Assembly: GCA_000004985.1 (NCBI GenBank)
Contig: GG739494.1
DNA from: Naegleria gruberi
Lineage: Eukaryota
Reading direction: 5' to 3' (one strand)
DNA length: 1,225 nt
The translations under genes and the position numbers were made by a program. Under the pieces are notes generated by a model. That model was given only the letters and a program-made list of their open reading frames with translations, was not told the origin of the DNA and did no database searches. This document shows, piece after piece, positions 114 through 667 of the stretch. The stretch's first letter is position 1. Every line of letters starts with the position of its first letter.

Positions 114-353
114 ACAGACTGTTTTACCTTTAAGGTGATCAGCCTTGAGACCTGCTACTATTGTTTAAATCACTAATAAACACCATATTTAATCAAAATT
201 TGAACTTTCCAAAGTTTACTATTTACCTGAATTGTTTGAGAAGGAAACTTCTCATAAAAAGAAGGGTAGTTTCCCAACAGTGTTTTAATCAACTAAGTCA
301 AATTATTTCATGTCATTCTTAAATTTGAGACAGAAAGAGTGAAATCTTTGATT

Positions 354-551
354 TTAATGAATATTCCACAACAGAGGTGTTTGTGAAGTTATTTCCATTT
401 TAAATTTTTCCATTTTGGATTTATTATAGAATGATACATTAGTATTTCCCTTAATTCCATTCTTGCTCCGTCTCTTACTGCTGACTGTCCCGTTTGACAG
501 CTTATTACATCTGACGGATCCCGTTACTCCTCGTGCCAGTTGAACTCGTTG
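354..551 (-). other. Longest open frame in the window, on the minus strand. It is 65 codons without a start and only 19 codons from the first in-frame ATG (413-411) to the TAA at 356-354. I do not call it a gene.
   Basis: Hand translation (minus strand): QRVQLARGVTGSVRCNKLSNGTVSSKRRSKNGIKGNTNVSFYNKSKMEKFKMEITSQTPLLWNIH*. It is bounded upstream by TGA (the complement of 552-554). The K/N/S-rich composition is what an AT-rich random frame produces. Confidence 0.1.
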
Positions 552-570
552 TCAAGTTGGCCCATTATCG
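461..570. other. Local GC- and CpG-rich island, roughly 50% GC against a window average of about 30%. It holds about half of the window's CpG dinucleotides.
   Basis: Hand count: 7 of the 12 CpGs I could find in the whole window lie between 469 and 570. The composition shift is visible by eye. Confidence 0.5.
474..530. repeat. Degenerate tandem direct repeat of two units of about 28 bp: cttactgctgactgtcccgtt-tgacag followed by cttattacatctgacggatcccgtt-actcc.
   Basis: Shared ordered blocks are ctta[c/t]t (474 and 501), ctgac (481-485 and 511-515) and tcccgtt (488-494 and 519-525). Spacing between matching blocks is 27-31 bp. Confidence 0.5.
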
Positions 571-627
571 TTATTTCTTTTTTATTTCATTGATATTTTG
601 GACAGGTTTGTGACTATTACGGTGACT

Positions 628-653
628 GGGTTTGGGTTTGGGAGACTGTAGGG
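628..653 (+). other. G-quadruplex-capable tract: GGG(628-630) ttt GGG(634-636) ttt GGG(640-642) agactgta GGG(651-653). It contains a (TTTGGG)2 tandem.
   Basis: There are four G3 runs with loops of 3, 3 and 8 nt on the + strand. This is the only such G-run cluster in the window. Confidence 0.4.
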
Positions 654-667
654 TAAATCCATTACCC
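651..667. repeat. Perfect small hairpin: gggtaa(651-656), loop atcca, ttaccc(662-667).
   Basis: The reverse complement of gggtaa is ttaccc. The stem is exactly 6 bp with a 5-nt loop, immediately 3' of the G-run tract. Confidence 0.5.

Follow-up and report, generated by a model that had tools for sequence, protein, structure and literature searches.

Eukaryotic nuclear DNA that has long been subject to cytosine methylation and deamination is usually recognisable by a depletion of CpG combined with an excess of TpG and CpA. The classical CpG islands of Gardiner-Garden and Frommer have a GC content of at least 50%, a CpG observed/expected ratio of at least 0.6 and, as conventional minimum, a length of at least 200 bp. 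The as-1 element of CaMV 35S consists of two TGACG motifs arranged in tandem and closely spaced. The W-box consensus, in the passage of PMC3834811 used here, is TTGACY. In the maize hAT elements Ac/Ds, AAACGG hexamers are subterminal transposase-binding repeats, and an Ac/Ds end is recognised by at least three AAACGG in the subterminal 200 bp and by an 11-bp terminal inverted repeat (TIR) (PMC3260210).

The window analysed here is the whole stretch of DNA of 1225 nt, with an overall GC content of 30%, and it contains a GC/CpG-rich patch (Table 1) which can be compared with each of these systems. With 50.0% GC and a CpG observed/expected ratio of 1.06, the patch lies within the GC and ratio limits of a classical CpG island, and like a promoter CpG island it stands in CpG-depleted surroundings. 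However, its length of about 100–110 bp (110 bp for the patch, 99 bp for the segment found by maximum likelihood) is below 200 bp, it has only seven CpGs, and no gene is detectable adjoining it. It is similar to the W-box clusters and as-1 of plant defence promoters in that several TGAC occur within 150 bp, with one TGACG, but it possesses neither TTGACY nor a second TGACG, and the clustering is not significant family-wise. It is similar to hAT Ac/Ds ends in that the CpG-containing word ACGG/CCGT occurs five times, in both orientations, within 160 bp, but only one exact AAACGG is present, whereas at least three are required in Ac/Ds (PMC3260210), and no 8-bp target-site duplication (TSD) is present at the patch.

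Compared with a young or CpG-retaining transposable element (TE) fragment in CpG-decayed intergenic or intronic DNA, the patch is alike in being short, sharp-edged, higher in GC, undepleted in CpG and non-coding, and in having short internal direct and inverted repeats. It differs in having no TIRs, target-site duplication or tail, and neither a second copy nor a family consensus in the collections searched, which hold almost no eukaryotic nuclear DNA. Our tentative preference is that the patch is non-coding DNA which either post-dates its CpG-decayed flanks or is foreign to them, for example a fragment of a mobile element.

Table 1. Features of the GC/CpG-rich patch and the adjoining sequence (positions in the window)
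Feature	Position	Strand	Description
GC/CpG-rich patch	461–570	.	50% GC; 65% pyrimidine on +; 7 CpGs; CpG obs/exp 1.06
Nested inverted repeats	467–518	.	From folding; symmetric 12-nt spacers between arms
Outer arms	467–472 and 513–518		TCCGTC and GACGGA
Inner arms	485–489 and 496–500		CTGTC and GACAG
Direct repeat, copy 1	481–494	+	CTGACTG-TCCCGTT; from local alignment; carries TGAC 482–485
Direct repeat, copy 2	511–525	+	CTGACGGATCCCGTT; from local alignment; carries the window's only TGACG, 512–516
Mini-ORF	565 down to 524	-	ATGGGCCAACTTGACAACGAGTTCAACTGGCACGAGGAGTAA, encoding MGQLDNEFNWHEE-stop; 13 codons; A at -3, G at +4
Fourth TGAC core of the patch	551–554	-	CTTGACAA; not TTGACY
T-rich spacer	571–600	+	13% GC; 70% T; between the patch and the second GC-richer patch
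Second patch, G-rich	601–667	+	48% GC; one CpG; TGAC at 611–614 and 623–626; (TGGGTT)2.7 at 627–642

Composition, CpG content and repeats of the patch

The first-pass annotation of this DNA had described 461–570 as a segment of about 50% GC, unlike its surroundings, holding about half of the CpGs of the window. Our analysis bore out both statements. GC content is 50.0% within 461–570 and 28.2% in the rest of the window, and seven of the 12 CpGs (at 469, 491, 515, 522, 532, 547, and 569) are located in the patch. The highest GC count of any 110-nt frame was reached in only one of 3000 dinucleotide shuffles (P=0.0003), and the same was found for the highest CpG count (1/3000, P=0.0003). The edges are sharp: in 10-nt bins, GC rises from 30% to 60% at 460/461 and falls from 50% to 10% at 570/571. 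Maximum-likelihood segmentation placed a GC-rich segment (53% GC, 99 bp) at 465–563.

The patch also holds more CpGs than the flanks would predict. The observed/expected ratio is 1.03–1.06 in the patch vs 0.21–0.23 outside, and seven CpGs were found where 1.5 are predicted from the depletion ratio of the flanks (Poisson P=9e-4). The CpA/TpG value is 1.10 in the patch, no sign of decay, and 1.21 in the flanks. In the flanks themselves (1–460 and 661–1225) the values are 0.21 for CpG, 1.21 for CpA/TpG, 0.62 for GpC, and 0.84 for TpA; CWG is not depleted there (17 observed vs 13.9 expected). About four fifths of the flank CpGs have been lost, with a matching excess of TpG and CpA. This suggests a heavily CpG-methylated eukaryotic host, and on this dinucleotide signature the window was treated as non-coding nuclear DNA of a CpG-methylating eukaryote. 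Decay of the RIP type was ruled out for the flanks, because the (CpA+TpG)/(ApC+GpT) ratio of about 1.2 is not RIP-like. Undepleted CpG is the one robust signal in the patch; in a strongly CpG-depleted context it is informative on age or methylation state, and it names no transcription factor.

The same figures bear on the reading that the patch is plain compositional heterogeneity, i.e. old non-coding DNA that became GC-richer by chance. None of the tests run gave any functional or homologous signal, which agrees with such a reading, and the second G-rich patch at 601–667 shows that the neighbourhood is uneven. But a homogeneous-sequence model is rejected for GC and for CpG (P=0.0003 each), and in old methylated DNA, whatever its GC content, CpGs should have disappeared as in the flanks, whereas the ratio in the patch is 1.06. 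We therefore consider chance heterogeneity unlikely.

The patch had also been said to contain a tandem duplication of two 28-bp units. What our analysis found of it is a short direct repeat of 14/15 nt, with one mismatch and one indel, at a spacing of 30 (Table 1). Its local alignment score was 18, and the best adjacent-block score was 20, the mean of the shuffles being 12.9 (P=0.014). The 28-bp units themselves could not be recovered: the other halves of the proposed units gave no alignment with each other, Tandem Repeats Finder (TRF) at a minimum score of 30 reported nothing in 461–570, and a repeat search of the window listed no direct-repeat family at 481–525.

Folding revealed, in addition, the nested inverted repeats of Table 1, whose arms supply the TGAC cores at 495–498 and 512–515. 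The stretch 462–522, chosen post hoc, folds at -14.3 kcal/mol (z=-3.3) on the + strand and at -16.2 kcal/mol (z=-2.9) on the - strand, and the fold of the whole region 455–680 is unremarkable (z=-0.6 and -1.1). Since the fold of 462–522 is stable on both strands, it indicates a dyad at the DNA level and not a strand-specific RNA.

TGAC cores and the cis-regulatory reading

Six TGAC cores had been listed in the first-pass annotation, which likened them to WRKY and TGA-bZIP cores and gave a cis-regulatory module as one of several possible readings of the segment. The four in the patch, CTGACTG (481–487), TTTGACAG (493–500), CTGACGG (511–517), and TTGTCAAG (549–556), are exactly where that annotation placed them, but the two downstream are off by one: 609–614 reads TGTGAC, with GTGACT at 610–615, and 622–630 reads GTGACTGGG, with GGTGACTGG at 621–629.

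That annotation had reckoned with less than one TGAC in 150 bp, which proved too low. Shuffles gave 8.1–8.5 TGAC per 1225-nt window, or about 1.0 per 150 bp, and at local composition the expectation is 1.4 in 110 bp and 1.9 in 150 bp. Over the whole window there is no enrichment (11 observed vs 8.1–8.5 expected, P about 0.2). The nominal P was 0.03 for the four cores in 461–570, and 0.004–0.005 for six in 461–630 or 481–630. However, because TGAC was picked after the sequence had been read, a correction for the choice of word was needed, for which the best of all 136 strand-symmetric 4-mers was taken from each shuffle. Over these 136 classes, the family-wise P was 0.85 for 461–570 and 0.39 for 461–630. 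The enrichment over shuffled controls was thus lost, which is one half of what the first-pass annotation had itself named as speaking against its proposal. The 4-mer with the strongest over-representation was ACGG/CCGT, all five window copies of which are located in 461–630, in both orientations (family-wise P=0.08).

A cluster of a 4-base word picked post hoc should be corrected not only for the 136 words but also for internal repeats. The cores at 482 and 512 are within the direct repeat, and those at 495 and 512 are within arms of the inverted repeats, so that three of the four patch cores derive from these repeats and are not independent of each other.

TGAC by itself is not a W-box. By the consensus in the passage of PMC3834811 used here, none of the four cores within 461–570 is a canonical TTGACY. 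The window has three such sites, at 296–301 (-), 694–699, and 881–886, a number at chance (at least three in 49 of 200 shuffles). Without TTGACY in the patch, as the consensus is given there, and without family-wise significance of the clustering, the WRKY W-box reading is not supported. The TGA-bZIP reading is likewise unsupported, as the TGACG at 512–516 is the single one in the whole window, and there is thus no as-1-type pair. The plant framing of the motifs has no support in the sequence data, and the proposed WRKY/TGA-bZIP module is not supported: there is no W-box, there is one TGACG, and the clustering is seen only before correction.

A broader form of the proposal makes the patch a cis-regulatory module to which TGAC-recognising factors bind, whether WRKY, TGA/bZIP, TALE homeodomain or similar. 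Six TGAC in 481–630 against 1.9 expected locally (nominal P=0.004) and the TGACG at 512–516 would fit it, as would TGACAGCT at 495–502, which resembles TALE/KNOX-type sites. The dyad symmetry of 467–518 could suit dimeric factors, and CpG retention would be in keeping with a site that bound protein keeps unmethylated. But the cluster has a family-wise P of 0.39–0.85, the patch offers no TTGACY and only one TGACG, and three of its four cores, being part of the direct repeat or of an inverted-repeat arm, do not count as independent. A module of this kind seems to us quite improbable.

Coding, transcript and RNA signals

No protein-coding signal was found. The longest stop-free stretch on either strand has 65 codons under the standard or bacterial code, and alternative genetic codes, ciliate included, gave nothing convincingly protein-like in the window. 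Six-frame searches of 430–700 and of the rest of the window returned no protein relatives at E<=10, and none of ten window ORFs is present in a collection of 15 billion proteins. Over the patch there is no three-base periodicity (P=0.43). No AG...GT exon with an open frame and good splice sites was found on either strand; donors were weak or acceptors purine-rich. An internal protein-coding exon over the patch is disfavoured. An organellar insert (NUMT/NUPT) is also unlikely, because neither protein searches nor rRNA/tRNA models gave a match.

The patch might still belong to a transcript that encodes no protein here. It could be the hypomethylated start of a + strand transcript, i.e. a 5′UTR first exon or a non-coding exon, in which case CpGs would be retained because the transcription-start region is unmethylated in the germline. 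A TATA-like TTATTATAG is present at 421–429 and an initiator-like CCATTCT at 457–463, about 30–35 nt downstream of it, at the left edge of the patch. Alternatively, the set of signals around a 3′ splice site could be read from a pyrimidine-rich stretch at 443–495, a branch-point-like CTGAC at 481–485 and AG at 499–500, with a donor-like CAG/GTTTGT at 605/606. On the + strand the patch is 65% pyrimidine, its surroundings to the left and right are rich in T (AT skew between -0.3 and -0.4 over 376–650), 431–747 is free of ATG, and the hairpin at 618–682 is stable on the + strand only (z=-3.46 vs -0.29). However, the signals in question are generic, being brief consensus matches singled out by eye in an AT-rich sequence, and an ATG-free 459–605 arises in 15% of shuffles. 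All three + strand frames are closed within 501–605, with no open-frame exon with good splice sites, and no protein similar to the rest of the window was found. A transcript start or exon at this place is, in our judgement, rather unlikely.

A more specific version would make the patch a functional ‘CpG islet’, unmethylated in the germline, that serves as a compact regulatory or transcription-start element; factors would bind the dyad core at 467–518 and the CTGAC...TCCCGTT units, and the hairpin at 618–682 would be part of the same transcript. This we regard as highly improbable.

Several observations were made on the + strand beyond the patch. Two ATG-free stretches of about 310 nt each were found, 431–747, which spans both GC-richer patches, and 1–310; the total number of ATGs is 17. 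The hairpin at 618–682 has a G-U-rich stem of 17 bp in which GGUGACUGGGUUUGGGU pairs with ACCCAAAUUUAGUUGUC; it folds at -25.4 kcal/mol (z=-3.46, reached in 0 of 200 shuffles; z=-0.29 on the minus strand) and has no Rfam match. Transcription into an RNA hairpin is one possible explanation, a side effect of the (TGGGTT)n microrepeat another. That microrepeat, a perfect (TGGGTT)2.7 at 627–642 with a TRF score of 32, is similar to telomere-like G-strand repeats, for instance TTTGGG, but its length is much too small for any interpretation. At 725–742, CACTATATAATAAAAAAG is a close fit to the plant-type TATA-box consensus, and the same stretch contains AATAAA. No convincing gene start was found downstream of it, the first ATG, at 834, opening an ORF of 16 codons.

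Searches for known RNAs gave no match overlapping 461–570 in Rfam at E<=10 and no tRNA in the window with ARAGORN, and hence no sign of a tRNA-derived SINE head. The hairpin of 462–522, with its large symmetric internal loop, was considered as an H/ACA RNA and rejected: by eye, neither strand has an H box after the lower stem, and a second hairpin plus ACA is missing. A weak covariance match to mir-5365 at 289–361 (+) reached 24 bits (E=0.03), where the gathering score is 70; it lies in AT-rich sequence and is probably due to chance.

Whether the patch encodes a small structured RNA, in the hairpin of 462–522, or a micro-peptide, in the minus-strand ORF MGQLDNEFNWHEE-stop, can be judged from the same data. 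The + strand fold (z=-3.3) speaks for the RNA, and the mini-ORF has A at -3 and G at +4, with G or C at the third position in 11 of 13 codons (GC-by-phase P=0.002 over 524–565, a stretch chosen post hoc). On the other hand, the two strands form the hairpin with equal stability, as expected of a DNA-level inverted repeat; inspection by eye showed neither an H/ACA nor a C/D box arrangement; Rfam has no match over the patch at E<=10; and the fold of 455–680 as a whole is ordinary (z=-0.6 and -1.1). No relatives of MGQLDNEFNWHEE were found, and the periodicity is gone over the whole patch (P=0.43). We give very little credence to either product.

Mobile-element comparisons and origin of the patch

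No DNA relative of the patch was found, and no sign of a prokaryotic, viral or plasmid origin. Upon blastn search against phages and plasmids there was no hit, and an exact 29-mer was absent from metagenome, prokaryote-genome, and viral contig collections. A degenerate 21-mer that tolerates CpG decay gave 6 + 3 matches, all of seed length only and thus attributable to chance. Two other window segments were absent from the viral contigs, and a full-text literature search with six 14–17-mers gave no match. As these collections are almost without eukaryotic nuclear DNA, missing related copies say little.

The comparison with mobile elements was made on their termini and on consensus sequences of three repeat families. 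A scan for 12-nt TIRs flanked by 5–10-nt target-site duplications around the patch (starts 331–480, ends 561–800) gave no candidates, against 0.43 per control shuffle; a MITE or a complete DNA transposon was rejected, as no TIR and TSD bracket the patch. Two TSD-like direct-repeat pairs do bracket it, GTTATTTCCATTTTA at 388–402 with GTTATTTCTTTTTTA at 570–584 (13/15), and TTAATTCCATT at 451–461 with GTAAATCCATT at 653–663 (9/11), but both are at about chance for T-rich or AT-rich DNA by a rough estimate (about 0.1–0.15 expected for the first pair).

A hAT Ac/Ds-like end was likewise rejected, there being one AAACGG, no TIR beyond chance and no TSD. The ACGG/CCGT copies include one exact AAACGG (490–495, -) and GATCCCGTT, and the number of AAACGG with at most one mismatch in the window is at chance. 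No Ac-type 11-bp TIR was found beyond chance, the best having three mismatches (11 found vs 7.3 expected). Alignments to single consensus sequences of these three families, which give leads rather than the result of a repeat-library search, were non-significant: P was 0.09–0.2 for MIR, 0.11–0.56 for the inverted repeat of Sleeping Beauty/Tc1, and 0.045–0.6 for the human L1 5′UTR. In the L1 consensus used, TGTCCC-GTTTGACAGCTT matched at 18/19 positions, with P=0.045 before correction for the three consensus tries. The ACGG/CCGT cluster calls to mind the short repeats that DNA transposons carry in their subterminal regions.

The preferred reading, a younger or foreign piece of non-coding DNA, would account for these observations as follows. 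The flanks would be old AT-rich DNA that lost four fifths of its CpGs through methylation and deamination, and the patch may have arrived or been copied in after this decay, with all its CpGs kept. The 22-point GC gap is too large for CpG retention alone, which argues that the patch is a different kind of sequence from its flanks. It may derive from a mobile element, as a fragment, or from some other inserted DNA, and it probably has no function of its own. The TGAC words, and the CCGT words with them, would be by-products of the direct and nested inverted repeats rather than selected binding sites; these repeats account for three of the four TGAC cores of the patch.

A functional element that is hypomethylated in the germline would explain the CpG retention itself just as well. 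We take the patch to resemble the familiar CpG-retaining repeat or exon remnants of methylated genomes, and a TE fragment or a CpG-keeping exon or UTR remnant, both named as alternatives in the first-pass annotation, are the most reasonable candidates. Nothing in the patch is outside known kinds of sequence, and its identity is probably mundane. If our preferred reading is true, it is one more anonymous remnant in non-coding DNA and matters little; if it were conserved and unmethylated in the host, it would be a candidate for a very small promoter or enhancer.

Two other parts of the window carry repeats of their own. A strong imperfect palindrome was found at 38–122, with outer arms TTTTAGGCTATTTTTTT at 48–64 and AAAAAAGTAGCCTAGAA at 98–114 (88%). 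Inside these arms is a perfect GCCTG-TTTTT-CAGGC hairpin, bordered by runs of T and A. The palindrome folds at -27.7 kcal/mol, with z=-4.7 on the + strand and z=-4.0 on the - strand, and this stability on both strands indicates a foldback at the DNA level, possibly a small foldback or MITE-like element. The Rfam match to Phe_leader at this place is spurious (24.9 bits vs a gathering score of 55). At the right end of the window, where GC is 20%, there are tandem repeats, (ATAGATGA)2 at 1025–1040 and about 2.5 copies of TATATATGATG at 1160–1184.
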